Counted from the stretch's first letter, positions 3,545-23,186 are shown. The stretch is DNA of 64,000 nt from a virus (IMGVR_UViG_3300031998_000006:32001-96000), one strand, 5' to 3'. A program made the numbers and translations. Notes: generated from the sequence alone by a model not told the origin.

Positions 3545-5284
3545 ATGTCTAACAACTTGAATTGGACCATCGCATACAAGACGGTCTTTGGCGAAAAGAA
3601 GGTGGAATCTTTCACGGACAAGAAGGAAGCTGACGCTCGTTATGAAGCCCTCCTTGCACGAACCTATGGTAGCCTTGGCGATATTGCCGGTGTGACGAAG
3701 CCGGTTCAGTCCGGGGCGAAGGTCACGGAATCCAAGGAACAGAAGACTCCGAAGAAGTGCGAATCTTGGGTGGTTGACTACAAGCGTCTGTTCGACTCCG
3801 AAATCGAGTCCGAAGAGTTTGACAACCTTACGGATGCGAACGAGTTCTACAACCGCCTTATGGACGATGCCGAAGGTTACGAGTTCATAGACGAACCCCG
3901 TGAAGTTGAAGGTCTTGAAGAATGCGGTGGCTCTTCTGCCGCATCTCTCGGTGCTATTCCCACGGGTGTTGTTAGACAGAACGATGAATCCAAGAAGTCC
4001 GAAGCAACGGGAGATACCGGCATTGATGCACAGATGATTGATGCCCTCCGCAAGAAAGCCAATGAGGACCGTGAATGGTTCGGCAAGTTCAACGATATGT
4101 TCTCCGAAGAACTCAAGGAAGCTGGTTTGGGTGGTTTCGTGATGGTGTTCCGTCCGAAGGACCCAACCAAGGTTGATGACCGCTTCCAGTACAACGTGGA
4201 ATGGCAGCCGTATGACTTGAACTACGATTTTGTTAAGAATGACGAGTTTAACCAGAAGACCTATGGCTTCATTGATTGCGAATGGGATGGCAAGTCCGTT
4301 GTTACGCACGACTACCGCCCATTGGACGAACAGAGCATTGACGATTTCTATGACACCGTTGTTGCAAGCGGTTCGGGCGATGAGGGTATCTTCCTCTGGG
4401 TGCTTGAGCAGTACAAGCAGAGCATCGGCAAGACGGAAGCCAAGAAGTCCGAAGCGGACGGTGATGAAGCCAAGCTCCAAGCCGCCTATGGCGATGGCGG
4501 CATCATTACTCACGAATCCTCCGCAGACGGCTTCTATGTGGATGACCATGACCCGATGGGCTATGCAATCCTCAATAACGATGTGGCTACGATGAAGGAA
4601 CTCTTCGCAGGCACTGCACCCGTTCCCGAAAAGCCTTGGACCTATGCCGGTTGGCACGAAGACACGGACGCCCCGGAAGACAAGGACGGAAACTATCCGT
4701 ATGTCTATGACTGGGAACGAGAAAACGATACCAACTTCGTGAACGACTGGAAGCGAGTTGTTGGCGAAACGAACAACGAAGAAGCCCTCAACTTTCTTCT
4801 TGAAAAGGCACCGGACTTTGTTCCTACCGCAATCGACTTCTACAATGCATTCCATGCCGGTTATGACAAGAAGCTGCTCCGCAAGTTGCTTGACAACATC
4901 AGCACGGTGGTTGACAAGGAAGACATCAGCCGTGAATATTTGAATTATGAAGACTTTGGCGAAGATGCCTACAACAACCTCGACAAGTTCTTGGATGCAT
5001 CCGAATCTTGTAAGTCCGAAGCCTTGCCCCCGAAGCAGTGGGGCAACCGCGCTCGTAAGTTCCCTTCCCGTGCCGCACTCGTCAACAAGGCGAAGACTCT
5101 CGGTGCTACCGAAATCATTAGCCACGATGATTACAAGAAGTTGAATGACGATGTGTTCCTCGACAAGATAGGCTTTGCAATGGACATCAACGGAAACTGC
5201 AAGGCTCGTCTGTGGTGGGGCGAAAAGGATGGAAAGTATTACTACACTATTACCCGTGATGTCCTCGACAAATCTGGCTGGTAA
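3545..5284 (+). CDS. Acidic multi-module protein with ESKKSE-type linkers (putative internal head polyprotein)
   Basis: AGGAG RBS. Linkers ESKKSE (3986), EAKKSE (4436) and ESCKSE (5003). Confidence 0.85.
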   Translation: MSNNLNWTIAYKTVFGEKKVESFTDKKEADARYEALLARTYGSLGDIAGVTKPVQSGAKVTESKEQKTPKKCESWVVDYKRLFDSEIESEEFDNLTDANEFYNRLMDDAEGYEFIDEPREVEGLEECGGSSAASLGAIPTGVVRQNDESKKSEATGDTGIDAQMIDALRKKANEDREWFGKFNDMFSEELKEAGLGGFVMVFRPKDPTKVDDRFQYNVEWQPYDLNYDFVKNDEFNQKTYGFIDCEWDGKSVVTHDYRPLDEQSIDDFYDTVVASGSGDEGIFLWVLEQYKQSIGKTEAKKSEADGDEAKLQAAYGDGGIITHESSADGFYVDDHDPMGYAILNNDVATMKELFAGTAPVPEKPWTYAGWHEDTDAPEDKDGNYPYVYDWERENDTNFVNDWKRVVGETNNEEALNFLLEKAPDFVPTAIDFYNAFHAGYDKKLLRKLLDNISTVVDKEDISREYLNYEDFGEDAYNNLDKFLDASESCKSEALPPKQWGNRARKFPSRAALVNKAKTLGATEIISHDDYKKLNDDVFLDKIGFAMDINGNCKARLWWGEKDGKYYYTITRDVLDKSGW

Positions 5285-5304
5285 CAAGGAGAAAAAAAAA
5301 GATT

Positions 5305-5589
5305 ATGTCCAAATTAACTATCAAGACTAACGAAGAATCTGGCGATGCATCGTTGCGTGACCTCATCCATGATGACAAGGAAAATACCCTTCTTGCAAAG
5401 TTCGGTACTTTGGGTGATGCCAACCGTTGTTTTGCGGCACTTTCTGGTGTCCTTTTCGACAATGGCGAACTTGCACAGCACGAAACCGTGGCATTGTTCC
5501 CGATTATGTCTAATGTGGCAGTCTTTATGTATGATAAAGCCGGTGCTGATGCCGTGGAAGAATACATCCTTGAACATTTCGGAGTTTAG
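5305..5589 (+). CDS. Putative internal head protein, leader MSKLTIKTNE
   Basis: AAGGAG RBS; shared 10-aa leader. Confidence 0.85.
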   Translation: MSKLTIKTNEESGDASLRDLIHDDKENTLLAKFGTLGDANRCFAALSGVLFDNGELAQHETVALFPIMSNVAVFMYDKAGADAVEEYILEHFGV

Positions 5590-5591
5590 TT

Positions 5592-5990
5592 ATGTCAAAG
5601 TTGGTAATTAAGGCTTACGAACATAGGGTAAAGGAGTCCACGGACTCTACCACTTACTCCATCATTTCTGCTTTCGGAAAGTACGAGGATGCCGATGGGC
5701 ATTCCGGTACTCTCTATGATGCAAGCACCCTCGTAACTACCCGTGAGTTTGCTTCCGCAGACGAACTTATCCAGTTCGTTTATCGCAAGTTGAAGATGAA
5801 CCCGAAGAACTGCACGGTCAATTCCCTTGATAGGGATGAGGGCGAATCGTACATTAGCCTTGAGGTTGTGTACAAGACTCGCTCTACTACCCAGTCCTAT
5901 CTGTTGCGTATCGTAGGTTACAAGCGTATCGCCTGCCCGAAGGACGAACTCGTGGATGCATTCAAACCTATTTTGTACAAGGAAGGTTGA
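5592..5990 (+). CDS. Putative internal head protein, leader MSKLVIKAYE
   Basis: GGAG RBS; shared 10-aa leader. Confidence 0.85.
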   Translation: MSKLVIKAYEHRVKESTDSTTYSIISAFGKYEDADGHSGTLYDASTLVTTREFASADELIQFVYRKLKMNPKNCTVNSLDRDEGESYISLEVVYKTRSTTQSYLLRIVGYKRIACPKDELVDAFKPILYKEG

Positions 5991-6013
5991 TTTTAATTCA
6001 AGGAGACTGTATT

Positions 6014-6382
6014 ATGGCAAAATTTAAATGTTCTATGCAGAAGAAGAAGGAATCTCTTGCCAAGGAATCCGAAGCAAAGAAGAACGAAGGGTTTATGAAT
6101 GACCTTCCGTATGATGCATCGGTTGCAATAGAATCGCTTTGTGCCGAGATTATGGCACACCCGGACACATTTACTATTGAAGATTCTGCCGTAGCTGAAA
6201 TGTGTGGCAAATGGTATATCCGTAGTTATGCGGATGGCCCCACGATGGCACATAATGAAGATGAATGGGTGGAAGAAGTTACCGCTGGGTTGTCTGGTAG
6301 CCCAGTGGATGGTTCTCCGTTTGGAGCTGCCGAAGCGGAAGAATATGCTCACAAGGTATTCCAAGAAGAACTTGCAGAATAA
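6014..6382 (+). CDS. Acidic protein with KFKCSMQKKKESL leader
   Basis: AAGGAG RBS and ATG at 6014; the leader recurs elsewhere in the window. Confidence 0.85.
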   Translation: MAKFKCSMQKKKESLAKESEAKKNEGFMNDLPYDASVAIESLCAEIMAHPDTFTIEDSAVAEMCGKWYIRSYADGPTMAHNEDEWVEEVTAGLSGSPVDGSPFGAAEAEEYAHKVFQEELAE

Positions 6383-6545
6383 TATTTTTGAATAGATAGC
6401 ACGGATTAGCTATAAATTTTGTATATTTATAGCATCAAGTTTAATGAATTAGTGGCTTTCTTCATTAAACGATAAGAACCATTTTACGATGGCTCGTTTG
6501 GAATTGAAAGCCACAGTAAGTTCCGAACGAGTCATTTTTGTATCT

Positions 6546-8240
6546 ATGAGTAAGCATTGTTGGACATTGAAGGATAAGTATGAGTCACAGTTCTCTGTGT
6601 CTTTTTATCCATTTATGTTGTCCAACACGAAGAAAGCTGAAATCCTACATAGGGCAGAAGAGATACGAGCGGTTAGAAATGAAATATCGGAAATCGTACA
6701 TAATGATATGTTACGGTTTCAAGATATGTCAAAGTTTAGTTTTCAAAAAGTATTTAATTCTTTATATAATCATAGGCTTTCTAGTCATTATTTACATAAG
6801 GCGATTGATGATGTTTGGATAGCATATAATCGTAGATTTAAGGCGATTGCTCAAAAGATTGAATTTTATAAAGTTGATAAGCTAATCCCCACATTTTATA
6901 AAATCAATACTCATGGACATCATATAGGCGATTTACGTAGTATTACTTGTCATACTCGTAAAACTGATTTGACATTAGCTCTGACTTGGTTGGCTAAACA
7001 CGGTAATGATACTACTATTGAATGGTTAAAATCTACAATAGCTTCGGGGTCTTCCAAGAATGCCTTTTATTATAAGTTATTAGGATATATTCAACGTTTT
7101 GGGTTTGGGCGACTTATGCGGTTGGCAACATCTCGACGGGATGCCTTATTTAAGTCTTATTTTTTACGCGGTAGGATTATTTTTAATTCTTTGACATTTC
7201 ATGGAAGGAGTAGGCATACTCGACCTATTGTAAGTTTGGCTCGAAAAGAAAAGGGTAAGTTTAATTGTTATATAGAACTTTCATGGCTGTGGAATAATCA
7301 AGGTTATCATGGTGTGGCTACAAATGCTTTATGCATTCCGGTTAAGTATAGTAAAGCATATCATCGGTCTTTAACTAGATATACTCATAGTTTTGATACC
7401 TTTTATACTATGGTTATTACAGGTAAGGATATTCATATAGTTTTATATAGACGAGGGTATCGGTACAAGAATAATGTAGAGATTAGTGATAACAATACTA
7501 TAGGTATAGATGTTAATTCTAAAACTAATATGTTTACTTTAAGTACGGGTGGGTTTATAGCTAATGATTCATCCCTAATAAATGAGTTTATAGTAGAATC
7601 TCGTAAGGTTGATAGAAAGCAACATCACTATAATTCTAGGTATGCTATCCAGCCTGATGTTTCAGCATTTAAGATGTCTAAAACGGATAAAATTCATATC
7701 AGTTCTATTTCTAGGAAATTGAAGGAATCTAATAGAAGAACTATTGTAAACTTATGTAAGCAACTTGCCATTAAGGGTATATGGCATATTGCTATGGAAA
7801 ATTTAATTGGATTTAAAGGTACTAAATTACATCCAAATGATGAATTAGGGTTTAATCTAGGGAGGTTGCATAAATATATAAATTTATCCTCATTAAAGGA
7901 CGAGTTTATACATATAGCTCCCAAGTACGGGTTGTCCGTATCTCTTGTGCAACCCGAATACACATCAAAGATGTGTGGACATTGCGGATGCATAGATGAC
8001 CGCAATCGTCAAACCCAAGAAGTTTTTAAATGTGTTGAATGTGGGCATACAGAAAATGCTGACGTTCATAGTGCAAAGAATATCAAATTCCGTCTTACCT
8101 CGACCGTGTTAAGGGGGTACTTGTTCGAAAGAGCGAGGGATAACGGATATAGGAACTTTCAGCCAAAGAGCTTGTCTAGGTGGCAAGTAAGGGAGTTCCT
8201 AGAAAAATGTCGTAGCAGTGGGCTATTTAGTAGTTCATAG
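6546..8240 (+). CDS. tnpB: Large TnpB-family RuvC nuclease (~560 aa)
   Basis: IGIDVN, AMENL, PEYTSKMCGHCG, FKCVECGH and NADVHSAKNI. Very AT-rich. The start could instead be 6489. Confidence 0.88.
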   Translation: MSKHCWTLKDKYESQFSVSFYPFMLSNTKKAEILHRAEEIRAVRNEISEIVHNDMLRFQDMSKFSFQKVFNSLYNHRLSSHYLHKAIDDVWIAYNRRFKAIAQKIEFYKVDKLIPTFYKINTHGHHIGDLRSITCHTRKTDLTLALTWLAKHGNDTTIEWLKSTIASGSSKNAFYYKLLGYIQRFGFGRLMRLATSRRDALFKSYFLRGRIIFNSLTFHGRSRHTRPIVSLARKEKGKFNCYIELSWLWNNQGYHGVATNALCIPVKYSKAYHRSLTRYTHSFDTFYTMVITGKDIHIVLYRRGYRYKNNVEISDNNTIGIDVNSKTNMFTLSTGGFIANDSSLINEFIVESRKVDRKQHHYNSRYAIQPDVSAFKMSKTDKIHISSISRKLKESNRRTIVNLCKQLAIKGIWHIAMENLIGFKGTKLHPNDELGFNLGRLHKYINLSSLKDEFIHIAPKYGLSVSLVQPEYTSKMCGHCGCIDDRNRQTQEVFKCVECGHTENADVHSAKNIKFRLTSTVLRGYLFERARDNGYRNFQPKSLSRWQVREFLEKCRSSGLFSSS

Positions 8241-8384: not shown

Positions 8385-9452
8385 ATGAAAATAATTGAAG
8401 ACTATATCCCATTTAAGTGCGAAATTATAGATGACATTTCTAGGGTGGACGAGTCCGCACAGTCCGAGGTTGCCAAGTCGGGTGGCACGATTCTCGCCAT
8501 TGTGAAGGGTCCTCATTTCTGTCCCGGAAAGGTCAGCCGTAACCACAGACTTTATACGGAAGAACTCTGGGAAGCAGCAAGCAAGGATGAGGAAGTTCAG
8601 CGCAAGCTCGCCAATGGGCAGATGTTTGGTCGTGTGGGTCACGAAGCCGAAATTACCGATGAAGACATCGGGGCAGGCAACTACTCCCACATTACTCGTA
8701 ACATCGACTGGAAGACCGGCATTGCGGAATCCGTCATCTTCAACACCCCGATGGGCAATAATCTCTACACCCTTCTCCGTGCCGGTACTACCACGATGTA
8801 TGTCAGCTCCCGTGCTGACGGCGACTACTGTGGCAAGGACGAGGATGACAATGACATTCTTGACCCGAAGACCTACAAGCTGGAACGATTTGACTTTGTT
8901 CAGGACCCCGGCTTCCTTGATGCCAAGCCGAAGCTGATTTCCGAATCCAAGAAGAAAGAGGACGAAAACCTCAAGGAAACCATTGGAGAGAAGGTTGCAG
9001 AATCGCTTCTCAACCTCGCTATGGAAATCGGAGCGCCCCTTGAACTCGATGGCTCTACCTACTCTGTTGACAAGGTTTGCGAAAGCAAGGTGGATATGTC
9101 CGATTGCGAAACGATGACCAGCGATACCTACACTCTCGGCGACTTTACCGAAGTGACGGAAGATATGCGTAAGGGAATCGTTGAACATTTCAACAACCAG
9201 CAGAAGGAACTTGAGGAATCTCGCAAGGAACTTGAAGAAGCCCACAAGCTCATCAAGACCCTCCGCTTCGCCAACCGCAAGGGCTTGGACGAAGACTATG
9301 TGGAAAGACGAGTGAGTGAGGGTGCATCGCTTGAAAGCATCGAACGCGAACATCCCACTCCGCAGCCGTTCAAGGTTGTGGAAGCCAAGTTCAAGAAGGT
9401 CAACGAAGAATACGATACACTTGATTACCTGCTCGGCTTGGGCAGAAAGTGA
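8385..9452 (+). CDS. gp21: Prohead (maturation) protease, T4 gp21-like, with C-terminal extension
   Basis: SRNHRLY, FGRVGH (His), YVSSRADG (Ser) and FDFVQDPGF follow the gp21-family motif order; lies upstream of the scaffold and capsid genes. Confidence 0.85.
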   Translation: MKIIEDYIPFKCEIIDDISRVDESAQSEVAKSGGTILAIVKGPHFCPGKVSRNHRLYTEELWEAASKDEEVQRKLANGQMFGRVGHEAEITDEDIGAGNYSHITRNIDWKTGIAESVIFNTPMGNNLYTLLRAGTTTMYVSSRADGDYCGKDEDDNDILDPKTYKLERFDFVQDPGFLDAKPKLISESKKKEDENLKETIGEKVAESLLNLAMEIGAPLELDGSTYSVDKVCESKVDMSDCETMTSDTYTLGDFTEVTEDMRKGIVEHFNNQQKELEESRKELEEAHKLIKTLRFANRKGLDEDYVERRVSEGASLESIEREHPTPQPFKVVEAKFKKVNEEYDTLDYLLGLGRK

Positions 9453-9463
9453 GGAGCATAACT

Positions 9464-9838
9464 ATGGGTAAGATGAAGATTAAGGTTCACGAAGCCGTTT
9501 CGGATAGAGCGGATATTGTGATTAGCGATTTCTTGGATGACCATAAGGCTGATGCTCATGATTTAATGACTTCGGCATTTTCTGAAATTTTGTATGGAAT
9601 GGGTCCTAACCAGACGATAGACAAAGATTTGGCAGAAGTGTTAGCGGAATACGCTTATCGTATGATTTTGTACAACGCCTACTACTATGACCAGTACGTG
9701 CCTACTTTGGAAGAATTTGCCGAAATGTGCAATAAGAAGCGTATGGAAACCCCGTTAATGGATTCTACCACCCATGCATTTACGGATGCTATTATCAAGC
9801 AAATCTATATGCAATATGCTCCTTTGTTGAAGGACTAA
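9464..9838 (+). CDS. Putative internal head protein, leader MGKMKIKVHE
   Basis: GAGGAG RBS and ATG at 9464; shared leader. Confidence 0.85.
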   Translation: MGKMKIKVHEAVSDRADIVISDFLDDHKADAHDLMTSAFSEILYGMGPNQTIDKDLAEVLAEYAYRMILYNAYYYDQYVPTLEEFAEMCNKKRMETPLMDSTTHAFTDAIIKQIYMQYAPLLKD

Positions 9839-9854: not shown

Positions 9855-10445
9855 ATGTCCAAAATGACTATCCGTTTGCATGAGAGCAAGGTACAGGAAG
9901 CAACGGGCCTGTTCTTGCCAGAATCCTTGAAGGAATCTCTTGAGTTCCACCTTCCGAACTGCACCGATTGCAAATCCGTAATCGTCTGCAAGTGTGACGA
10001 AGAACTCGACGAGGACATTCAATGGGCAATCCGAGATACATCACTTCCGGTGGTGGATGCTTCCATTGCTGACAACTACCTCGTCCTCGCATTGGAAGAG
10101 AATGCATCCGATGAGGAAATCCAGTCTATCTTCAACGAAGAGTACAAGAAAGCCATCCTTACGAAAGCCCCGAAGCTGGTGGCTTCTATGGATGTGGAAT
10201 CCTTGCAGAAAGCCCTCGTGGACTTGCAATCGGGTAGCATCGGCAAGCCGTGGGAACTCGACTTTACGAACTCCGTGTCTTGGGGCTTGAACATCTTCGA
10301 TGACATCCTCTATAGCGAACAGAGCGGTGCAAGCGTCTATGCCACCGCGTTCAACTATGTGGTTTGCGGACCGGACGGAAAGGAATTGACCACAACCCGT
10401 TCTATGGTGGAAGTGAAGAACTTCCTTGACACAAATTTCAAATAG
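9855..10445 (+). CDS. Putative internal head protein, leader MSKMTIRLHE
   Basis: Shared leader; acidic. Confidence 0.85.
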   Translation: MSKMTIRLHESKVQEATGLFLPESLKESLEFHLPNCTDCKSVIVCKCDEELDEDIQWAIRDTSLPVVDASIADNYLVLALEENASDEEIQSIFNEEYKKAILTKAPKLVASMDVESLQKALVDLQSGSIGKPWELDFTNSVSWGLNIFDDILYSEQSGASVYATAFNYVVCGPDGKELTTTRSMVEVKNFLDTNFK

Positions 10446-10457: not shown

Positions 10458-10856
10458 ATGGCAAAAATGACAATCAAGGTTAAGGAAGCCAAGGAATACG
10501 GAAGCATCGAAGAGGTGTTCCAGGACTTGGGCTACTTCCCGGCAGAAGACAGCGATGACAAGAAGCTCGTCTGCTATATGGACTTTGAAACGGGCATAGA
10601 TGTTCCGAAGTATGTGTCCGTTATTACTCACTATGATTTCCAAGCCGATGACCTTCTTGTTGAAGTGGCAGCCGGTTCTTATGACCACACCACTCGTGAC
10701 GGAAGCATCGGGGATATGTTCTACACCTTCATCGGTGCGGAACTTGAACATCCCACTTTCGAGCAGGTCAAGAAAGCCTGCAAGAATGCGGAAAAGGCGG
10801 CAAAATACTATATTAAGGCTTTGCAGATTAACCTAAACACAGAAGGAGCGGTGTAA
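10458..10856 (+). CDS. Putative internal head protein, leader MAKMTIKVKE
   Basis: AGGAG RBS; shared leader. Confidence 0.85.
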   Translation: MAKMTIKVKEAKEYGSIEEVFQDLGYFPAEDSDDKKLVCYMDFETGIDVPKYVSVITHYDFQADDLLVEVAAGSYDHTTRDGSIGDMFYTFIGAELEHPTFEQVKKACKNAEKAAKYYIKALQINLNTEGAV

Positions 10857-10858: not shown

Positions 10859-11239
10859 ATGTCCAAGATGAAGATTACAGTTCACGAAGCCAAGAACGAT
10901 AAGATAGTACCCTACACCTTGATGCAGTGCTACTATCCCGACGAAAAGCGATGGGACCCGATTCTCGTTGAAATCAACTCCAATGACCAGGGCTGGTTCT
11001 ACGATGGACTCGCTCCGGTGGACAACTTCGGCAACTTCGCCTATTACGAATTTGGTTGGGATTTCATCCATCAGCGTTGCAGGAAGGGTACGGATAAGTG
11101 TGACCCCGAAATGGTTGCCGCTATGGAGAAGGAATACTTGTCCGGGGATGACCTTGCGGATGGCTACACCTACAAGAAGGTGGACGGAAGACTCGGTGCC
11201 TATGTTCCGAAGGGCTTGCGTTACATTGGAAACAATTAA
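10859..11239 (+). CDS. Putative internal head protein, leader MSKMKITVHE
   Basis: AAGGAG RBS; shared leader. Confidence 0.85.
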   Translation: MSKMKITVHEAKNDKIVPYTLMQCYYPDEKRWDPILVEINSNDQGWFYDGLAPVDNFGNFAYYEFGWDFIHQRCRKGTDKCDPEMVAAMEKEYLSGDDLADGYTYKKVDGRLGAYVPKGLRYIGNN

Positions 11240-11445
11240 GGAAACCGTCAATAAATCCCACCCATCTTTAGTGGGTGGGTTGAATTGCCCGAAAGAATAA
11301 GGTATATTATGTCTAACAATACGGGTGGAACGCCCGGAATTTACGCCGACGGAGATATTATGATACACGTTAGTGTAGCAGCCCCGGAAACCTTGCATAC
11401 TAGGATGTGTGAAACCTACACGTCTTTAGTGTGTGGGTAGTTCAT
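11240..11445 (+). mobile_element. Non-autonomous IS200/IS605 mini element (both ends plus a tnpB 3'/omegaRNA-like segment)
   Basis: Left hairpin CCCACCCA-TCTTTAG-TGGGTGGG and right end ACCTACACGTCTTTAGTGTGTGGGTAGTTCA, both resembling the ends of the 49.6-51.0 kb element. Confidence 0.75.
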
Positions 11446-11458
11446 GGAGAAAACCACT

Positions 11459-12442
11459 ATGATTATCGACAAGATTCTCGACCGCTATGATGGCGATGCC
11501 TATGACCCGGAAGACTTTTACAAGGCGATGATGTCCTACGAAGAAGGTACGGACTTTAAGATTTCTCGCGCTCTCGACAGTGGCGAGGAAGAGGACATCA
11601 AGCGTGAACTCTGTGCCTACATCGACGATGGTAACTACAATCCGAAGATTAAGGACTTCATCAATTCCGTGAAGTGGCTCGAAGCCGATGATGGCAAGGA
11701 CTACAGCAAGGAATTTGACATCCTCGGCGAATCCAAGAAGGGCGAATCCAAGTTCAAATGCTCTATGGCAAAGAAGAAGGAATCCCTCGCAAAGAAGAGC
11801 GAAGGGTTTAAGACTGATTGGCAAATGGATGTTGTCAATAGTCTGGAAACCATCAAAGATAAGTATGGTTTGGTTGTTGAATACAAGGAAATAGAGGATG
11901 GTCTTAATGGTGTTACGGATAGTTACACTGTGAAGATTAAGCGTGGACCCCTTTCGGAAATAATGGCAATCGTGGGTCCGGATTATTTGAACCTCTTCAC
12001 GGAGGATGTATCTCGCCAGTATTTATCTAAAGATTATGATTCTACAGAAGCACTTAACAAATTGGTTGATGCTATCTCGGAATATGTGAAAAAGAATGAC
12101 TGGACTAGGGAATCCAAGAAGAGCGAAGCAACTTACGATAGACCTGTGAGCCTGTATATCACCACTCGTTACGATGATGCGGAAGAGGCCCAGAATTTCA
12201 TCAAGGATATGGTTGGCGAAGAATTAACCGTGTCCAAGGACCGTAATGGGGATGCTCTGTATGTGAGTATCGAAGGTTCGGACGATGCCATTGATGCATT
12301 CCTTGAAGTTTACAAGGATGAATATGAAAACATCTTGAATGATTGCGATGTTGATGCAAACGGATGGGTTTCCCCGGATGATACTTACTACTCTTCTATT
12401 GAAGGTCGCAAGGAATTGATGGGCGAATCCACGAAGAAATAG
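11459..12442 (+). CDS. Acidic multi-module protein with ESKK linkers
   Basis: GGAG RBS and ATG at 11459. Internal GESKKGESKFKCSMAKKKESLAKKSE and RESKKSE. Confidence 0.85.
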   Translation: MIIDKILDRYDGDAYDPEDFYKAMMSYEEGTDFKISRALDSGEEEDIKRELCAYIDDGNYNPKIKDFINSVKWLEADDGKDYSKEFDILGESKKGESKFKCSMAKKKESLAKKSEGFKTDWQMDVVNSLETIKDKYGLVVEYKEIEDGLNGVTDSYTVKIKRGPLSEIMAIVGPDYLNLFTEDVSRQYLSKDYDSTEALNKLVDAISEYVKKNDWTRESKKSEATYDRPVSLYITTRYDDAEEAQNFIKDMVGEELTVSKDRNGDALYVSIEGSDDAIDAFLEVYKDEYENILNDCDVDANGWVSPDDTYYSSIEGRKELMGESTKK

Positions 12443-12514: not shown

Positions 12515-12930
12515 GTATTGCCATTTTCTTTCGTACAAAATAAATATAATAGTTTATCTAAATATATAACAATTTATCTATAACTCCATACTTGATAAAG
12601 TGTTATATTTGTCAAAAAGTGTCAATTTATTTGTGGGTTTCTTAAAATCCGCAAGTTTTTTTATTATATTATTTTGTTGGACACTAGGATTGAATCTACC
12701 GAAGTCATTAAAAATGCTCGGCTTAAAAACCGAGAATGCCCGAAACCATCGTAGATAGCAATATCTATGTAAGTTAGGGGTATCAAATAGGTTTTTAATC
12801 TAGGAGAGGATTCAAATTCCAGTTTAAAAGGGACGGCATTTTGCCGATTTCAAAAACCTACCCTTTTAGGAGAGCAATCCAAAAGATTGCTTAATGCAAA
12901 CAAAGTAACCCTAACAGGAGACCATCCATT

Positions 12931-13500
12931 ATGGTTAATACCAACCGAATCGCTGCTCGTTACGAAGCTCGTACCGCTGCTTTCCGCAAGCGTCTCGAAG
13001 CCAAACGTGCAGAAAAGAAACTCCGTGAAGAAGACGAAGGTATCATCGAAGTTGACGGCGTTAAGCTGAATGCCGCTGAAACCGAAGTCATCTTTGCTGA
13101 CGAAGACAAGGACATCCAGGTTGTCGCTTCTCCGAATCCGGAAAACGAAAACGAAGTCGTTGTCGCTGTTCTCACTGCTTCCAAGGATGATGTTGAAGAA
13201 GAAGAAGTTCTCGGCTCTGCATCCGTTGAAGGTAGCGAAGAAACCGCAGGTGCAGAAGAAGCACGAAAGGCTGAACGTCGCGAAGCATTCCGCAAGCGCC
13301 TTGAAGCCAAACGTGCAGAAGGTAAGTCCGCAACACCCGCTCGTAACGAAGCTCGTATTGCCGCTTTCCGCAAGCGCCTTGAAGCCCGTCGTGCTGGAAA
13401 GACGAGCGAATCCAAGGCTACGGCTACCGCTGACGCCCGTAAGAAGAGCATCGCAGAAGCCCGTGCCAAGTTCCGTTCCAAAATCGGCAAGAAAGCCTAA
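12931..13500 (+). CDS. Prohead core/scaffold protein
   Basis: Immediately upstream of the capsid gene; highly charged and helical; three AFRKRLEA(K/R)RA repeats. Confidence 0.7.
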   Translation: MVNTNRIAARYEARTAAFRKRLEAKRAEKKLREEDEGIIEVDGVKLNAAETEVIFADEDKDIQVVASPNPENENEVVVAVLTASKDDVEEEEVLGSASVEGSEETAGAEEARKAERREAFRKRLEAKRAEGKSATPARNEARIAAFRKRLEARRAGKTSESKATATADARKKSIAEARAKFRSKIGKKA

Positions 13501-13518
13501 ACCCGGAGGAAATCCAAA

Positions 13519-15174
13519 ATGAATAAACCTTCTATTGAAGAACTCTCCAATGCCAAGTACGACCGCATCGTAGAATCCTACGAAGCCCGTTATGGCAAGC
13601 AGTTTGAAAAACTCGCCAAGAGCCAGTCTTTCAAGGGCAGCTTGAGCAAGAACGATATGTTCAACCTCGGCGCTCAACTCGACAACTACAAGAAGTACGA
13701 AAGCTATGTCGCTGAAAATTCCTCGGCTTCCAGCCTTGGTGTCCTTCCGCGTGTTGCTCTCGACCTCATCTCCGCAACTTACGCCCTCTCCATCGCTCCG
13801 CAGCTTGCATCCGTGCAGACTTTGGACGAAGCCCAGGGTCTTATCTACTTCAAGAAGACTTTCACTCACGGCTATCCGTTGACCGCACAGAATGGTCTTC
13901 CGGCTCTTCCGGAAGAACGCTGGATGGGTGCAGACGGCAAGTTTGAAGGTGAACAGTCCTTCAATGGTGCTTGGAAGAAGTGGCTTGACTCTCGTCCGCG
14001 TCCGGCAACGGGTGCTGGCGACACTCTCACTCCGGAAACTCTTACCGCCAAGAACTTTGATGCCATTACCTTCAATGCCTTGAAGGGTTGGCAGTCTTCT
14101 CCGACCGGCTATATGAGCGAACGCCAGTTCGTGGCTGTTGACGGCGACACCGCCACCATCAAGTATGGTGTTGGCAACCTCCGCTGGAACACCCCGATTA
14201 ACATTCGCCTTGTTGCACCGGATGGTAAGGTGGAAGACATCGTTGGTCTTACCGCTGGTCCGGGTCAGCTCCCGACCTTCTACGGCAAGGTTGCTGTGAC
14301 CGCAGCCCAGAGCGGTAAGGACATCGTTCTCTCTGGCTTCAATGGCTACCAGGGTATGGTTGCCTATGATGTTGACTTTGAAAAGGCACCGGACGTTCCG
14401 GCTATTGAATACGGTCTCGACACGAAGGTTGTCAGCGCCGAAATCATTGGCTTGAAGGAAATGCTCGGTACTTTCAAGAGCTTCCAGTTCAACAAGCGCT
14501 TCGGTAAGGCTGCTTCCGATGAAGTCCTCGCTGACCTCACTGGTCACATGGCTATGGCTGAATCCGAAAAGGTTCTCGCCGCCTATGTCCAGTCCGCTAA
14601 CAAGTGGGCTCCGCTCACTTGGGATTTGAACAAGCCGAATACCATCTCCGAATACGAACATCGTCAGTCCTTCCTCTATGTCATCCAGGCTGCTTCTGCC
14701 GCCATCGGCGCTCGTGCAGGCAAGGGCTATGCTAACAAGATTGTTGCCGGTTATGTTGCTTGCCAGTACATCGCTTCCCTTCCGGGCTTCCGTCCTGCTC
14801 CGCAGACGAACCTCGTTGGTCCGCACGTGTATGGCACTCTCGAAAACGAAGGTATCACGGTTATTCGTAGCAACACCATCGTTGCACCGAACGAAGTTAT
14901 CTGTGCTTACAGCTCCGACAACTCCCCGTTCGAAGCTCCGGTTGTTTGCGCTACCTATATGCCGGTGTTCCTTACCGACACTATGCCGGTTGCCGATAAT
15001 CCGTTCCAGACCCAGCGTGCAATCGCTTCTTGGAAGGCTATCGAACCGGTGGTTGCTGAATTTGTTCAGCGCATCGTGATTACGAAGAACACTGCCCCGG
15101 CTGCGGATGCCTATGTGTATCTTACCAGCAATCCGGGTAATGGCTCTTCCAACGGTGGTAGCGGTAACGGCTAA
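13519..15174 (+). CDS. gp23: Major capsid protein, T4 gp23-like
   Basis: LASVQTL...GLIYF, GKGYANKIVA and EAPVVCATYMP match gp23-family motifs; strong high-expression codon bias; GGAGG RBS. Confidence 0.9.
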   Translation: MNKPSIEELSNAKYDRIVESYEARYGKQFEKLAKSQSFKGSLSKNDMFNLGAQLDNYKKYESYVAENSSASSLGVLPRVALDLISATYALSIAPQLASVQTLDEAQGLIYFKKTFTHGYPLTAQNGLPALPEERWMGADGKFEGEQSFNGAWKKWLDSRPRPATGAGDTLTPETLTAKNFDAITFNALKGWQSSPTGYMSERQFVAVDGDTATIKYGVGNLRWNTPINIRLVAPDGKVEDIVGLTAGPGQLPTFYGKVAVTAAQSGKDIVLSGFNGYQGMVAYDVDFEKAPDVPAIEYGLDTKVVSAEIIGLKEMLGTFKSFQFNKRFGKAASDEVLADLTGHMAMAESEKVLAAYVQSANKWAPLTWDLNKPNTISEYEHRQSFLYVIQAASAAIGARAGKGYANKIVAGYVACQYIASLPGFRPAPQTNLVGPHVYGTLENEGITVIRSNTIVAPNEVICAYSSDNSPFEAPVVCATYMPVFLTDTMPVADNPFQTQRAIASWKAIEPVVAEFVQRIVITKNTAPAADAYVYLTSNPGNGSSNGGSGNG

Positions 15175-15466: not shown

Positions 15467-17476
15467 ATGACGAACGAACGCAGAAGTAATGCCGATTACT
15501 TGCAGGAAATATGGGATTCCCTTGAGGGTGTCTGGGACAAGTCCAAGTATAATATGGAAAAGGGCTACGATGACGAGTACGGCTGTGAATGTATCACAAT
15601 CTCGCTTCGTGACAATGAGGATGTCCGTGCAAAGATTTATGTGGAAGACCACGAAGGTCAGCATCCTACCGGCTTTGAGGTGGTGTACCGCTACCCCGGC
15701 GACAAGGGTGTGGGCATAGGTGGCTACTACGAGTTCCAGAGTACCGATATGGACGGACTGGGTGAGGAAGTGTTTGACTACTTTGACGAAATTAAGAACA
15801 AGGTTGGAGAATCTATGAAGAACGAAGGAAAGAACGAAGTGTCCAACTTCTCTAGGGATAGCTTGGGAGTATCGTTTGACGGTAAGTTCGGCAATATGCG
15901 AAAGGGCGAAAGCTGGGTAGTTTACCCGGAAACCTTGGACAAGGGCTACATCTGCATCCAGGGCGATACTCGCTTCGGCTATATCAATGTGAACAAGGGC
16001 TTCCTCGTGTTGTCCGCACCGCATAGCACCCCGATTTATGCCGCACTAATGGTTGACATCAACAAGGGCAAGGCACAGTGTATTCCGCTTGAGAAGGAAA
16101 TCGTTGACCAGATTTTGAATGCCGTGAATGACAGAACCATCACGGACCATAGCCTTGACAATGTTATCCGCAATGCCGATGTCACGGATGACGAACTCAA
16201 GGGCGAAGCAAAGCAGATGGAAGCCACGAAGAAGTATTACGGTTATGGCAAGGATGATGTTATTGACAAGGAAGACACTGACTTTATGTGGCAAGTTGCT
16301 TATGATTGGTTTGAGGACCGATTGCCCGAACGATTAAAGGGTAAGGCTGATAGTGCCGTGTATAAAGTCATTGATAAGGATAGCCGTGCATACGAAGAAA
16401 TCTTGACTATGGACGATTACCACGATTACTTGCAAAAGTACGGTCCTGGCATCATCAAGGACATCAAGGCTAACAACGAAGCCAAGCAGTGCGAAGATGT
16501 GCAGTATTACTATGACCGCTTGAACCCTACTGAAAAGGAAAAGTTCAACGGACTCTCCGAACAGATTGAAACTTTGGTTGGTATGTATGACGAGAACGGG
16601 GAGTTGTCCAAACCGCAGCAAGACCAGCTTAAAGAATTGCGTGACACCATCTATGTGTTCGGATATGTTGCAAGGGGCTATGTCAGCTTTGCCGATGAAG
16701 TCCTTGCCAACTATGGGGTTGAACCTTTGCTTGACTCCAAGGAGCCAGTCTTCGATGAAGCCAGACAACCCGCAGAATATAGTGTGCATTCCTACAATGA
16801 TACGGACATCCAGCATTATGAAGACGGCACACCCGAAGAATGGAGATGTCAGCGTTGTGGTGGTTTGAACGGTGGCGAAGATGGTGAACCTTTTGGAAAA
16901 TACATTACGGATTCTAATGGAAAGGTTGTGATACGCTTACTGTGTTCTGGTTGTGCAGATGACGCTTGCGATATTCTTAATGCTACTCACGGAAATGTCC
17001 GTAAGGCTATAGGACTTGGTGAATCCAAGAAGTCCGAAGATGCTTCCGACCCTATGGTTATCTACAAGGAAGGTGGCATTTATCGCACTACACCGAAGTC
17101 CAACTACGATGCCCGTATTCAAAATGCTTTCCGCATCCAGAAGTGGGATGGCTTTGACACTCCGCAGGAAATCATCAACTATTGCACGAAGTATTCTAGT
17201 GGCTTTGACCCGGAGAATGTGATTATCGTCGAATCCAAGAAGAGCGAGTCCTTGACCCTCAAGCAGAAGGAACTCAAGGATATGGCACGCTACGGACAAG
17301 CCGAGGACATCACTACCATTTCCGACGCGGAAGCCAAGGAACTCAAGAAGAAGGGCATTGAAACGGTGGGCATCAGCCGTGGTGTCTATGGTATGAACGG
17401 TGCGTTGCTTCGTGACAACGAGGGTAATAAGTATGTGATTACCGCAAGAAGCAGTAATTTGTTCTACTTTGTTTGA
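15467..17476 (+). CDS. Multi-module polyprotein-like protein with E-x-K-x-x-E linkers
   Basis: Linkers ESMKNE, EAKQME, EAKQCE and ESKKSE x2 (17021, 17231); one module has CxxC...CxxC. Confidence 0.88.
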   Translation: MTNERRSNADYLQEIWDSLEGVWDKSKYNMEKGYDDEYGCECITISLRDNEDVRAKIYVEDHEGQHPTGFEVVYRYPGDKGVGIGGYYEFQSTDMDGLGEEVFDYFDEIKNKVGESMKNEGKNEVSNFSRDSLGVSFDGKFGNMRKGESWVVYPETLDKGYICIQGDTRFGYINVNKGFLVLSAPHSTPIYAALMVDINKGKAQCIPLEKEIVDQILNAVNDRTITDHSLDNVIRNADVTDDELKGEAKQMEATKKYYGYGKDDVIDKEDTDFMWQVAYDWFEDRLPERLKGKADSAVYKVIDKDSRAYEEILTMDDYHDYLQKYGPGIIKDIKANNEAKQCEDVQYYYDRLNPTEKEKFNGLSEQIETLVGMYDENGELSKPQQDQLKELRDTIYVFGYVARGYVSFADEVLANYGVEPLLDSKEPVFDEARQPAEYSVHSYNDTDIQHYEDGTPEEWRCQRCGGLNGGEDGEPFGKYITDSNGKVVIRLLCSGCADDACDILNATHGNVRKAIGLGESKKSEDASDPMVIYKEGGIYRTTPKSNYDARIQNAFRIQKWDGFDTPQEIINYCTKYSSGFDPENVIIVESKKSESLTLKQKELKDMARYGQAEDITTISDAEAKELKKKGIETVGISRGVYGMNGALLRDNEGNKYVITARSSNLFYFV

Positions 17477-19628: not shown

Positions 19629-19647
19629 TCGCTGTACCTCGCGTTGT

Positions 19648-19749: not shown

Positions 19750-20562
19750 ATGTCCAAATTGACCATCAAGGTACACGAAAACAAGTCCGAGGATTTCAAC
19801 TACGGGCGTGTTAGCACTCCGGTTGCCCAAGCCTACAAGGTTTTGGATGACCAGTATTGCGATGAAAAGACCGGTAAGATGACCGGTCCGGCATTTGACT
19901 CTATTATGCTTATGGCAGAGAATGATGAACCGATTTACAACTATGCCCAAAGCAAGAGAGTTAAGTCGCATTCTGTTGCTTGGATGGCTCTGTTGAAGGA
20001 CATTGCGATGACACTTCAATGGCACGATGATGTGCCACACGCTGAAAACTTGACCTCCGAGCAGGTCAAGAATTGGTTCAAGTTCAAGGGTCAGGATTAT
20101 AAGACGGAACTCGCTCCGTTGGTAAAGCTCATCGACGAATGGCGTGCCGATATGTTCAAGGACGAATCCAAGAAGTCCGAATCTCTCGCAGCGGATATGT
20201 CCAAGGCGATTCAGCAAAGCAAGCCTAAAGTTCTCTTGAGTGATGATGCTGTTGACTACTTTAATGATTACGATTCTATGCTTGACCAATTTGAAGGGGC
20301 ATACCAGACGGTCATTCACATCAATGGTAAGCACGGAGTTGAAGAAATGTGGTTTATTTATGAACCGGATGACAACATCGTTGCTATTGGTGACTTTGAT
20401 GTAGACCGTGCCGATGCTGAAAGGGCAAAGGAACTTATGGAAAAGTTCGTCCGTGGCGAACTTACCGAAAAGCCCGGAAACTCCGATGACCTTGAAAGTG
20501 TTGATTACATCGCCATCGTGGATGGCAATACCTACACCTCTACCGCATTCGTGGAAGGATAA
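19750..20562 (+). CDS. Putative internal head protein with MSKLTIKVHE leader and an ESKKSE linker
   Basis: Carries both motifs; ESKKSE at 20164. Confidence 0.88.
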   Translation: MSKLTIKVHENKSEDFNYGRVSTPVAQAYKVLDDQYCDEKTGKMTGPAFDSIMLMAENDEPIYNYAQSKRVKSHSVAWMALLKDIAMTLQWHDDVPHAENLTSEQVKNWFKFKGQDYKTELAPLVKLIDEWRADMFKDESKKSESLAADMSKAIQQSKPKVLLSDDAVDYFNDYDSMLDQFEGAYQTVIHINGKHGVEEMWFIYEPDDNIVAIGDFDVDRADAERAKELMEKFVRGELTEKPGNSDDLESVDYIAIVDGNTYTSTAFVEG

Positions 20563-20570
20563 TTACTACA

Positions 20571-21287
20571 ATGCTTGAACCGGATAACCAGAAAGTCTAT
20601 TTTACATCCGAAGACCTCTCGGAACTTTTCCCGGAAGCGGAAGACCCGATGAGTGCCGCTCTTGACGTGCTTGAGGGCGAGAAGTCCTTCATCGTGGTTG
20701 ACGGCACGGAACTCCCTCTCGGTTACGATTCCGAGAAGGATGCAATCATCATCGAGGATTCCGATGCATCGTCAGAAACCGCACGAAAGGCTCGTCAGCT
20801 TATGCAGTTGTTCGTGTCTAACGAACTTTTCTCTGCCCGTGACATCGAGGGCGAAAACGGATATATGCCCGATGAGGACTACCCGTATTCTGTGAATATT
20901 ACGGATGGTCAGTCCGCTAGGGTTGTGTCATATTATCCGTCCGAAGAGATGATTTATCCTACAGAAGTGAGCCTTTGGTCTGGAAGCGGTTACACCACTA
21001 CGGACATCTATGTTGAAGCGGACGATGACAATGCCGAGGGCGCTCTTGAGGAAGCCGTGGCATCCGCAGACAAGCACGGATGGAAGGGTGTGTTGTTAGA
21101 CACAACGGAAGTCGAAAATGATATGGCAGCGGATGGACACTACAATTTGGAAACGGGCGAAGGGGATGCCGTGTTCGACGAGACATACCTTTATGTGGAT
21201 GCTACGATGGCTGGTGCTTCGCAGCCCTACTATGTGTATGCCGAAAACTTCGGTGTCCGTCCTAACCGCAAGTTGAGAATTAAATAA
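20571..21287 (+). CDS. Highly acidic hypothetical protein
   Basis: ORF within the operon, with phage-like codon usage. Confidence 0.8.
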   Translation: MLEPDNQKVYFTSEDLSELFPEAEDPMSAALDVLEGEKSFIVVDGTELPLGYDSEKDAIIIEDSDASSETARKARQLMQLFVSNELFSARDIEGENGYMPDEDYPYSVNITDGQSARVVSYYPSEEMIYPTEVSLWSGSGYTTTDIYVEADDDNAEGALEEAVASADKHGWKGVLLDTTEVENDMAADGHYNLETGEGDAVFDETYLYVDATMAGASQPYYVYAENFGVRPNRKLRIK

Positions 21288-21302
21288 AGGAGCGAATGCT
21301 TT

Positions 21303-23186
21303 ATGGCTTTGAGAATTAACAATCACACGAAGGATTTTGCCGGTAAATTGCACGAATCCAAGAAGTCCGAGGGCAAGTGGGAAATCACTCCGCAAGAAAT
21401 GAATAACAAGTTCTTGCCGTTTCTTGGTAATCAAGTGGTGGCTACTCGTATTACCTCTCCGTCGCAGATTCCGGGCTACAATGCTCCGTTCAACATCGAC
21501 AAGCATTCTACCTATTACCTCATTGAACCGAATCCCGATTTCAATAGGGGTGCGAATAAGAATGTTCGTTCCGTCATTGTTGGATGGCAGGGCGATTCTA
21601 ACAAGGAATGGGTAATCCGTGTATATCCTACGGCTGACAAGTCGAAGGGTCAGTGGGATTGGAGTAATATGCCCATTGATGACGATGCAGCCGATTGGAG
21701 AGATGCGGCACGATATGTCACTAATTTGGTATTGAACGATTCAAAGAAGGAATCTACTATGACTGCACACAAGTTTGGCAACAAGTCCGAATCTTCCCGC
21801 TATGGTAGCGGTATGGCTACTCGTAAGGATTTCTCCAAGACTCGTAATCTTGGCGACATCCTTGAAGTCCTTGAATCCCACCGCAAATTGCTCAAGGCGG
21901 CTGCCGAGGATATGAACCAGAGCAAGGCTGACTTGAAGGATGCCATCAAGCGTCTTAACGAGTTTGAAAAGAATGCGGACTTCCTCAAGCAACAGTCCGT
22001 GAAGGGCATCAAGAAAGCGATAGCGGTCAAGAACTCCCCGGAAGTCCAGGCTTCGGGCGAAGTCATCGACGCTCTCAAGAGTGTCATTTCCATCATTGCG
22101 GCTGATTATGCTAACATCCCCGATGTCAAGCAGCTTATGACCGTCATAGACAGCCGATATGCCACTCGTGGTAGCCAGATTCTCACAACCCTTGAAGGTC
22201 AGGTTTCCCGTGCTATTGAAGTGGATATGAAGACCCTCCAGAACAGCATCGACAATGGCGATGTTGCCGAAGACGACATTATGAAGTTCGTGACCACCAC
22301 TACCATCACTCATGGCGTACAGAGCAAGAGCGTGGTGGAAAATGTCACTCCGGTCCTGGAACGAATGAATGCGATGATTGAAGCATCCTCCAAGATGCAG
22401 GAAGCCGTTATCGACCCGAAGGAGTTTAAGGAACTTCGTGACCTCGTGGAACAGATTGTGAAGGAAGCATCCGCTCCGAAGGACACCTTCCGTACATCCA
22501 TTGTTGCACTCGACAAGGACACTATCGCATCCGTCAAGACTGAATCCAAGATTGTTGAAGGTCTGCTCGACAAGCTCAAGTCCGTAGTGTCCGCAATCAA
22601 GGACAAGATTTCCGCTTTGTGGGATTCCTTCACTTCTCTCTTCTTTAGCGTGGAAGACGAAGCCCTTGAATCCGCTGACGTGTTCAACGAAGTGGAAGTT
22701 AGCCTTGCCATTGTTGGTATCGAGGTTCCGTCCGCTCCGAAGACTGAAAGCCTTGGTAAGCAGTTTGAAGTTCTTACGAAGTCTGTGCTTCACTGTTGCG
22801 ATAAGCTCGTCAAGGACGCTTCTCTCGCAGGAGAGTTCGACGACGAAGTTATATATGCGGAAGATGCGGTTAAGAATGCCGTTGAATCTTTCAAGAACCT
22901 CGGCAATGCTTGCAAGTCCTTGAAGTCCGTCCTCTCCTATCACAAGAACGAAGACAATATGAATGTCATCGGAATCTTGGCTGATGCCATCACGCAGATT
23001 GTTGCTGACGATGCTGGCGAAGAAGGTGGCGAGGGTAGCGAAGGTGGCGATGGCGAAGTTGGTGGCGAATCCGTCCTTGACCAGATTGAGAACGAATACT
23101 CCCCGGCTGGTGGCGAAGAGAACGAAGAACCCGAAGCTAATGCCGCACCCAACCCGGCTGAAATGGGAACTCCCGAAGAGTTCTAG
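21303..23186 (+). CDS. Large coiled-coil head-region protein with N-terminal LHESKKSE
   Basis: AAGGAG RBS; ESKKSE at 21354; long helical central region; acidic Gly/Glu tail. Confidence 0.85.
   Translation: MALRINNHTKDFAGKLHESKKSEGKWEITPQEMNNKFLPFLGNQVVATRITSPSQIPGYNAPFNIDKHSTYYLIEPNPDFNRGANKNVRSVIVGWQGDSNKEWVIRVYPTADKSKGQWDWSNMPIDDDAADWRDAARYVTNLVLNDSKKESTMTAHKFGNKSESSRYGSGMATRKDFSKTRNLGDILEVLESHRKLLKAAAEDMNQSKADLKDAIKRLNEFEKNADFLKQQSVKGIKKAIAVKNSPEVQASGEVIDALKSVISIIAADYANIPDVKQLMTVIDSRYATRGSQILTTLEGQVSRAIEVDMKTLQNSIDNGDVAEDDIMKFVTTTTITHGVQSKSVVENVTPVLERMNAMIEASSKMQEAVIDPKEFKELRDLVEQIVKEASAPKDTFRTSIVALDKDTIASVKTESKIVEGLLDKLKSVVSAIKDKISALWDSFTSLFFSVEDEALESADVFNEVEVSLAIVGIEVPSAPKTESLGKQFEVLTKSVLHCCDKLVKDASLAGEFDDEVIYAEDAVKNAVESFKNLGNACKSLKSVLSYHKNEDNMNVIGILADAITQIVADDAGEEGGEGSEGGDGEVGGESVLDQIENEYSPAGGEENEEPEANAAPNPAEMGTPEEF

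Follow-up and report, generated by a model that had tools for sequence, protein, structure and literature searches.

Gene organization of the head region

The sequence analysed here (the window) is a 64,000-nucleotide (nt) stretch, bases 32,001-96,000 of one 215,310-bp virus contig (IMGVR_UViG_3300031998_000006) of an uncultured phage. The 215-kb phage is myovirus-like, and the window contains its head-gene cluster, in which the capsid protein is of T4 type and the prohead protease of T4 gp21 type. The genes of these two proteins are surrounded by open reading frames (ORFs) made of small, mostly acidic modules of ~70-270 aa, dissimilar to one another and joined by a six-residue linker, ESKKSE or a variant of it (general form E-S-K-K-x-E). 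The linker is a conserved peptide that delimits independently evolving modules, and it is probably a cleavage site at which the phage's own prohead protease would release small proteins inside the capsid.

The genes that carry this finding are listed below. Positions are those of the window unless marked as genome positions, and lengths are in amino acids (aa).

3545..5284, + strand: putative polyprotein A, 579 aa, four modules; ESKKSE at 3986-4003, EAKKSE at 4436-4453, ESCKSE at 5003-5020
6014..6382, + strand: ORF B, type-2 leader MAKFKCSMQKKKESLAKESEAKKNE and one acidic module; probable start ATG at 6014
8385..9452, + strand: prohead protease, 355 aa, T4 gp21 / Peptidase_S77 type; ESKKKE at 8943-8960 (aa 187-192)
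11444..12442, + strand: putative polyprotein D, 332 aa; ESKKGE at 11729-11746, internal type-2 element SKFKCSMAKKKESLAKKSE (11747-11803), ESKKSE at 12110-12127
13519..15174, + strand: major capsid protein, Gp23 type; Pfam PF07068, E 1.2e-8
15467..17476, + strand: putative polyprotein F, 669 aa, six modules; ESMKNE at 15809, EAKQME at 16205, EAKQCE at 16478, ESKKSE at 17021 and 17231
17249-17473, + strand: F0, the conserved C-terminal module of polyprotein F, its last 75 aa
17496..19628, + strand: putative polyprotein G, probable start ATG at 17496; internal type-2 element 18063-18128; ESKKSE at 18540, 18849 and 19281, ESKKPE at 19206; C-terminal module conserved
19750..20562, + strand: ORF H, 270 aa; type-1 leader MSKLTIKVHE, a module, ESKKSE at 20164-20181, a second module
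20571..21287, + strand: ORF I, 238 aa, net charge -37; conserved in relatives, without linker
21303..23186, + strand: ORF J, 627 aa; the first 23 residues end in ESKKSE (21354-21371) and are followed by a conserved body of 604 aa
genome 195,246-197,399, + strand: remote putative polyprotein, 717 aa, immediately upstream of the terminase gene; ESKKNE, ESKKSE, ESKKNE

Occurrence of the linker motif

An earlier note on this sequence reported nine exact copies of ESKKSE in the window. All nine are present, at positions 3986, 12110, 17021, 17231, 18540, 18849, 19281, 20164 and 21354. Each is in frame on the + strand, and together they are spread over six ORFs (starting at 3545, 11444, 15467, 17469, 19750 and 21303); the three minus-strand frames of the window contain none. 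The variants listed in the same note are also found (EAKKSE 4436, ESCKSE 5003, ESKKGE 11729, ESKKPE 19206, ESMKNE 15809, EAKQME 16205, EAKQCE 16478), together with two more, EAKKNE at 6071 and ESKKKE at 8943, the latter within the protease. A candidate site in ORF 12931-13500, EARKAE, was discarded and is not counted, because its last Glu is not kept in relatives.

Genome-wide, ESKKSE occurs 10 times in 215,310 bp. In the nine motif-bearing ORFs (4,399 residues) the 10 observed copies compare with 0.0015 expected from composition; 5,000 shuffles of these ORFs gave a mean of 0.0012 copies and a maximum of 1. For the relaxed motif the same ORFs show 21 matches where 0.13 are expected. A six-frame scan of the whole genome with the relaxed motif gave 22 matches, 21 of which are on the + strand at two loci, genome 35,986-53,354 (the head region of the window) and genome 196,044-197,133 (the ORF just upstream of the terminase and portal genes). 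The lone match outside both loci is on the minus strand at genome 151,694. The motif is thus confined to head and packaging loci and absent from tail and early genes, as the earlier note had observed.

Two other properties described previously hold as well. The second Ser of the nine window copies is encoded by both TCC (seven copies) and AGC (two copies), and the blocks between motifs are mostly acidic, with an isoelectric point below 5.5 in 30 of 42 and lengths of 19-272 aa (median ~120).

Shuffling of modules bounded by the linker

A database search with ORF 15467-17476 scored 7,999 candidates, 188 of which passed the threshold of E<=1e-5. The 120 listed among these 188, with lengths of 367-1,161 aa, form the homologue set used here. 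Query coverage is 12-24% in most of them. ESKKSE is the commonest 6-mer of the set (224 copies); the next commonest, with ~105 copies, come from the shared C-terminal module. At least one relaxed motif is present in 117 of the 120 proteins, and relatives have up to 11 motif sites per protein. When the 120 sequences were split at the motif, 651 segments were obtained, of which 578 have 40 aa or more; they form 113 module families in 108 architectures. Every window polyprotein, as well as the remote one, has modules inside these homologues.

Pieces obtained by splitting the ORFs recur elsewhere, also as stand-alone ORFs with a leader. Modules 3 and 4 of polyprotein A reappear in other ORFs or positions among relatives; module 3 lies upstream of the protease gene here and within the gene after the capsid gene in two related loci (L010, L011). 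In L001 and L002, longer ORFs end in the single module of ORF B, and module 3 of polyprotein D reappears in other ORFs. Without its first 10 residues, the small ORF 10859-11239 corresponds to the C-terminal module of a polyprotein of 632 aa in L005. The second module of ORF H is a stand-alone ORF with the leader MKITIHE in L010 and L011, and ORF I is a distant paralogue of this same module.

The positions of similarity boundaries were counted independently of the motif-based splitting. Of 481 internal motif sites, 426 have two or more BLAST similarity boundaries inside the motif ±2 residues. Boundary density at the motif is 9.8-fold that elsewhere, and 38% of the boundaries fall in 5.8% of the residues. 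In addition, 54 whole-module matches to the related loci were examined, leaving aside four non-mosaic proteins and the near-duplicate loci L003, L004, L014 and L015. A strict motif or a protein end coincides with 30 of the starts and 38 of the ends, with ~12 expected for each. Thus the motif delimits modules that evolve independently, in agreement with the unrelated modules proposed in the earlier note.

Conservation of the peptide and of its DNA

Fifteen related loci were chosen by capsid-protein similarity (67-84% identity). Motifs of the E-S-K-K-x-E type are found in 12 of the 15, all on the strand of the capsid gene. The exceptions are L009, which is without any, and L012 and L013, in which EARKAE is the only one. 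The copies in related loci vary in synonymous codons, with AGC, TCA and TCT for Ser, GAG for Glu and AAA for Lys. Three related genomes were also scanned with a degenerate DNA pattern of the motif:

G001, 213 kb, 97% complete: forward 9, reverse 0, controls 0
G002, 216 kb, 99% complete: forward 16, reverse 0, controls 0
G003, 186 kb, 85% complete: forward 4, reverse 1, controls 0

The matches of G001 and G002 are in the head cluster and in a second locus ~50 kb off. Since relatives keep E-S-K-K-x-E despite synonymous codon changes, selection acts on the peptide, and the motif is not conserved as DNA alone.

Within this genome, by comparison, the copies of the motif are more alike in DNA sequence than codon bias would make them. 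Of 16 in-frame ESKK sites at the two loci (genome 35,986-53,354 and 196,044-197,133), 15 are GAATCCAAGAAG (P 1.3e-8). All 16 use TCC for the first Ser, a codon with a background frequency of 0.40 (P 4.6e-7). The DNA flanking the ESKK sites shows no conservation between copies. The motif might therefore be maintained mainly as DNA, as an 18-nt microhomology joint for cassette recombination with the peptide as a passenger, and the concentration of similarity breakpoints exactly at the motif would agree with this. We consider it very improbable. The synonymous changes in relatives speak against it, as do the copies being all in frame on the coding strand with none opposite, the presence of the motif at a non-shuffled position in the protease, and the pattern of constraint in the 120 homologues, where position 5 is free to vary while E, K, K and E are fixed. 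Recombination at linkers is moreover compatible with cleavage at the same sites. The uniformity beyond codon bias indicates that copying or recombination contributes to the identity of the copies. It is read as an effect of these processes at the linkers, atop selection on the peptide, which explains it in part.

Junction profile and interchangeable leaders

A profile was made from 107 junctions that precede the conserved C-terminal module, with positions numbered upstream from the supposed cut:

P1: Glu, 107/107
P2: Ser, 97/107
P3: Lys, 102/107
P4: Lys, 89/107
P5: Ser 53/107, Ala 24/107
P6: Glu, 65/107
P7-P12: no preference

The residue that follows ESKKxE is S, A, G or D at 233 of 267 sites in the 120 homologues. 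The start of a given module is the same across contexts. One module opens as M-ANI, MKKSE-ANI, MKTSE-ANI or ...ESKKSE-AS[V], and another as MKNE-AHY or, in window ORF 11444, as ESKKSE-ATY. Thus the mature start would be constant, directly after the last Glu.

Stand-alone modules begin at Met or behind a 10-residue leader of the MSKLTIKVHE type (type 1). Eight ORFs of the genome begin with this leader, M[SGAP]K[LM]xIxxxE. Seven of them belong to the head cluster, and the eighth, at genome 191,119, is not far from the remote polyprotein. The P3 residue of the leader is V, L, A, T or I, and the leader occurs also in relatives. In addition to ORF H, the window ORFs with this leader include:

5305..5589, + strand: small ORF, 94 aa, MSKLTIKTNE
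5592..5990, + strand: small ORF, 132 aa, MSKLVIKAYE
9464..9838, + strand: small ORF, 124 aa, MGKMKIKVHE
9855..10445, + strand: small ORF, 196 aa, MSKMTIRLHE
10458..10856, + strand: small ORF, 132 aa, MAKMTIKVKE
10859..11239, + strand: small ORF, 126 aa, MSKMKITVHE

The second signal (type 2) is an element of ~20 residues, KFKCSMxKKKESLxKKxE, which opens ORF 6014-6382 and is internal in ORFs 11444 and 17496. The three signals, i.e., linker, type-1 leader and type-2 element, each end in Glu with a small residue next, and judging from the module starts they are interchangeable before modules.

The prohead protease

The identification of ORF 8385 as a T4 gp21-type protease, of a family that cuts after Glu (PMC9026906), is supported by a PHROG match and by the predicted fold. 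The protein matches phrog_207, 'head maturation protease', at E 1e-20, and is 38% identical to the annotated head maturation protease of RHph_TM30. An orthologue that is 81% identical (P0122) gives a match to Pfam PF03420, Peptidase_S77, over residues 13-188 at E 1.7e-5, just under the score cut-off. In a Foldseek search of the PDB with the AlphaFold model (61 sequences; mean predicted local distance difference test score, pLDDT, 78.7), the top three matches are chains of T4 gp21 (5jbl), with E 8e-6 to 1.4e-5, probability 1.00 and target TM 0.68-0.70; herpesvirus proteases come next in the ranking, weakly. Residues H86, H102, S141 (in VSSR) and E187 are invariant in the 61 sequences, and the His and Ser residues are candidate catalytic residues.

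The only internal stretch of the model with pLDDT below 50 is residues 189-197. The motif ESKKKE (aa 187-192) is thus predicted to lie in a flexible linker between the protease domain and a C-terminal domain. A complex prediction with protease residues 1-192 and a 51-residue linker segment of ORF G yielded no verdict, with a score of 0.00 in a run without controls.

Characterized enzymes of this family recognize short sites. T4 gp21 cuts after Glu at L/I-x-E and the phiKZ enzyme uses S/A-x-E; in T4, residues 1-10 of IPIII make up the capsid targeting sequence (PMC9026906). In SPN3US the cut motif is A-x-E, and the protease trims its own C-terminal part (PMC10052503). The type-1 leader, with V/L/A-x-E in 10 residues, is close to the T4 rule. 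The linker departs from it by its Lys at P3.

This departure raises the question of whether the hexapeptide is cut at all. It could be a flexible charged spacer or a motif that binds scaffold, capsid interior or DNA, with the domains remaining joined. Six conserved residues are more than the three needed by known gp21-type enzymes (PMC9026906), Lys at P3 lies outside the known rules, and N4 vRNAP and polyvalent proteins of the ArdC type are known to be transferred without processing (PMC5512222). An uncut linker is nevertheless quite unlikely in our view. Conservation peaks at the last Glu and fades upstream, and a small residue follows the linker. Where the same module opens at Met-Ala or after a five-residue MKKSE stub, there is nothing to space. 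In the protease, moreover, the motif marks the boundary between the domains, the place at which members of the family process themselves (PMC10052503).

The conserved module F0 and the distribution of the system

The C-terminal module of polyprotein F, F0, is 81-99% identical in near relatives and is better conserved there than the capsid protein. It is in last position in 93 of 95 cases. A search gave 328 representative homologues at E<=0.001, and in all rows among the matches listed F0 is C-terminal or is a stand-alone protein of 68-80 aa. Distant lineages have other recurrent junctions before F0, several of which are of the form hydrophobic-x-E|S; lineage-specific junction peptides include ..ESS|RKKYTQ and ..SRKP[IV]|KS. 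F0 and its stand-alone relatives matched no Pfam or PHROG family, and the ESM Atlas gave only unnamed small proteins.

The position of F0 suggests another explanation in which the chains are cut as well. The variable N-terminal modules could be disposable propeptide or core material, like T4 gp22 or the propeptides of SPN3US, which would aid assembly before being degraded or expelled, with no delivery of effectors. On this view F0, the G C-terminus and the J body would be the only functional virion proteins among these products. The conserved modules are indeed C-terminal. Of the 14 sites in SPN3US, 13 serve to take off N-terminal propeptides, which can be as long as 254 residues and are themselves multiply cut (PMC10052503). 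The acidity of most modules is what would be expected of material leaving a DNA-filled head. However, variable modules also occur as stand-alone ORFs with a leader, and they are kept as units with 40-95% identity across phages. There are more than 100 families of them, which is more like selected cargo than filler, as with the internal proteins of T-even phages (PMC3012670). On balance we regard the propeptide explanation as unlikely, although it is the strongest of the competing ones.

Among more distant relatives, two phages of ~130 kb (L018, L019), whose protease is ~48% identical, and RHph_TM30 have compact head modules, and in L018 and L019 neither polyproteins nor an enriched k-mer were found. 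The expansion of polyproteins is thus a trait of the ~215-kb clade. For the same reason, a test of co-variation between linker and protease is uninformative.

Proposed explanation

The best explanation of these observations, which we hold to be probable, is that the ORFs encode polyproteins that are loaded into the prohead and cut by the prohead protease after the last Glu of each signal. The precursors would co-assemble into the prohead core, and the protease would cut them as T4 gp21 cuts at capsid targeting sequences, freeing a few dozen small proteins within the capsid. One gene may then yield many small capsid-loaded proteins, because the linker looks like a cut site of the phage's own protease. 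Recombination at the linkers would exchange modules between genes and phages; the shuffling itself is observed, and linker recombination is its likely mechanism. The pieces might finally exit with the DNA and act early in infection.

The steps of this scheme differ in strength. Prohead loading and cleavage are inferred from the capsid-targeting-sequence proteins of T4 and from head proteolysis in giant phages. Ejection, with an early or anti-defence role, is speculative, drawn from hypervariability and from the T-even precedent, in which internal proteins are diverse and have only the targeting sequence in common (PMC3012670). Of the cargo-polyprotein reading in the earlier note, the conserved peptide, the module borders, the restriction to head and packaging loci and the gp21-type protease all stood, and the invariant last Glu with its small following residue agrees with it. 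Cleavage, packaging and injection belong to its predicted part. The two leader types, the remote polyprotein, F0 and the Lys at P3 are not in that note.

A more extended form of the explanation may also be considered. The ORFs could belong to a cassette system, with a shared and fast-turning pool of more than 100 modules joined by E-S-K-K-x-E, loaded into the prohead, released by the protease and entering the host with the DNA, in which each joint is both protease site and recombination point. This is put forward tentatively, as a possibility that we would not yet call probable.

Several results weigh against cleavage at the linkers and against a cargo role. As to the protease, the window protein has no Pfam match at E<=0.01, the Peptidase_S77 score of orthologue P0122 (24.8 bits) is below the cut-off of 27, and phmmer against PDB sequences did not find gp21. 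As to the site, Lys at P3 departs from the L/I-x-E, S/A-x-E and A-x-E sites of characterized gp21-family enzymes, and the capsid protein 13519-15174 is without the ESKK motif. Among 72 protease homologues the universal site is [IV][ST]E|S, which corresponds to the first Glu of the motif, and KKxE is found only in the near clade. The protease might therefore cut at either Glu or at both; the module starts argue for the second. As to the modules, a cruder, cluster-based count of breakpoints gave 434 of 1,255 against 226 expected, about a twofold enrichment, and the uniformity of the linker DNA described above indicates a contribution of copying or recombination. The AlphaFold model of a family polyprotein (P0039, 33-sequence alignment) has a mean pLDDT of 43.6, too poor to count, although its three linkers are in coil at local pLDDT minima. 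The placing of linkers between folds is thus based on the protease model and on homology boundaries.

No module has a recognizable function or belongs to a known effector family in Pfam and PHROG scans. Pfam gave no family for the window polyproteins at E<=0.01, and PHROGs gave no functional family. Polyprotein A matched neither database, and ORF 17469-19628 had a sole PHROG match, phrog_29605, of unknown function. Single modules searched against Pfam at E<=1 gave only sub-threshold matches, with a sub-threshold zinc-ribbon or Lar-like match in two homologues. The suggestion that the modules are DNA mimics or anti-defence proteins is speculative, being based on acidity and hypervariability.

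If cleavage takes place, a single late gene would supply the capsid with many small, independent proteins, in a set that differs in almost every related phage. Uncultured jumbo phages would then be a rich and unexplored source of candidate proteins that act early or against host defences. The module boundaries are clean and predictable, which makes expression and screening easy, and the linker is a simple sequence handle for locating such cargo genes in metagenomes. A specificity with Lys at P3 and six-residue recognition would be new for the gp21 family, and a natural signal for loading multiple cargoes would become available, comparable to the T4 capsid targeting sequence used in protein packaging.

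Other features of the head region and genome

The capsid ORF 13519-15174 is nearest, among 50,697 phage records, to RHph_TM30-type Rhizobium phages, with a tblastn identity of 30% along the full match, and megablast of the region against the same records gave no nucleotide match. Near the N-terminus of the capsid protein (window 13519-13600), ~19 residues in, R[IL]VE-SYEARY is conserved, with RQVE-AYE in farther relatives; this is possibly a maturation site of the hydrophobic-x-Glu type. Two other structural genes of the window are given for context:

12931..13500, + strand: scaffold-like repeat protein, 189 aa, with AFRKRLEA[KR]RA repeats, directly upstream of the capsid gene; linker not conserved
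26413-28698: tail sheath gene

The terminase homologue (genome 199,813-202,662) and the portal homologue (genome 206,295-207,656) are outside the window. The terminase large subunit (L016:11801-14788, equivalent to genome 199,801-202,788) has an in-frame interruption of ~390 residues that contains an HNH endonuclease domain, with boundaries ...YLEV|CLSGDTEV... and ...VVTSN|CITGCIGAGKST. This insert looks like an intein. Three ORFs for TnpB / Cas12f-TNB-like transposases lie within structural clusters, at window 6489-8240, window 23638-24873 and genome 202,931-204,709 (L016:14931-16709). The first of these, between a putative cargo ORF and the protease gene, is in a patch of low guanine plus cytosine (GC) content (0.35 vs ~0.46).

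Long antisense ORFs of up to 1,374 aa are found opposite real + strand genes, on the minus strand at 25183-29307, 3377-5287 and 12850-14826. They are probably not genes, because the codons TTA, CTA and TCA are nearly absent (1-4% of their families). In window 56001-58000 the GC skew is -0.27, and nearly all other 2-kb bins are positive; this bin may represent a short block of genes on the opposite strand.

Comparison with known systems

In the literature searched, supplementary files being outside its scope, no description of such linkers was found, and 'ESKKSE' matched nothing. Searches on prohead proteases, capsid targeting and ejection or cargo proteins returned only the known work on T4, phiKZ, SPN3US and crassviruses.

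The internal proteins of T4 (IPI, IPII, IPIII, Alt) are alike in being small, diverse and unrelated proteins encoded among head genes. They have a short N-terminal signal that ends in hydrophobic-x-Glu (10 residues in IPIII), and a protease of the gp21 fold. The system described here differs in its chains of 2-6 modules, its internal six-residue linker with Lys at P3 and its two types of leader. Kinship to IPI, IPII or IPIII was not found, with no match for ORFs 9855-10445 and 19750-20562 against PHROGs and for 19750-20562 against Pfam.

In phiKZ, 201phi2-1 and SPN3US (gp175 / gp245 proteases), many head proteins are likewise processed after Glu by a gp21-related protease, in some precursors at more than one site; the protease loses its own C-terminal part, and many products are ejected with the DNA (PMC10052503, PMC9026906). 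Their motif is S/A-x-E or A-x-E with few other determinants, whereas here P3 is Lys in 102 of 107 junctions. The cuts in those phages mostly trim N-terminal propeptides of single proteins, not strings of unrelated modules, and the excerpts of these sources describe no combinatorial shuffling of modules. The capsid protein and protease of the window phage are also not close to the phiKZ group, the best phage matches being of the Rhizobium RHph_TM30 type (30% in tblastn, 36% in the best blastp segment).

If the cassette reading is correct, the system would be a tailed-phage counterpart of viral polyproteins and polymorphic-effector cassettes together. There is also a likeness in architecture to the polyvalent proteins of phages and conjugative elements (Iyer et al. 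2017, PMC5512222). These are mosaic multidomain proteins (2-15 domains) encoded beside virion genes, for which packaging and delivery along with the DNA are predicted, and they diversify fast in architecture. A mosaic architecture in a virion context is found here too, with 108 architectures in 120 homologues and genes that flank the protease and capsid genes, one being beside the terminase and portal genes. According to the excerpts of the same source, polyvalent proteins are defined by enzymatic and LPD domains, with a zincin-like metallopeptidase in the chain where processing is proposed. The proteins described here, in contrast, have no significant Pfam match, and their joints are a fixed hexapeptide that would fit the phage's own prohead protease.

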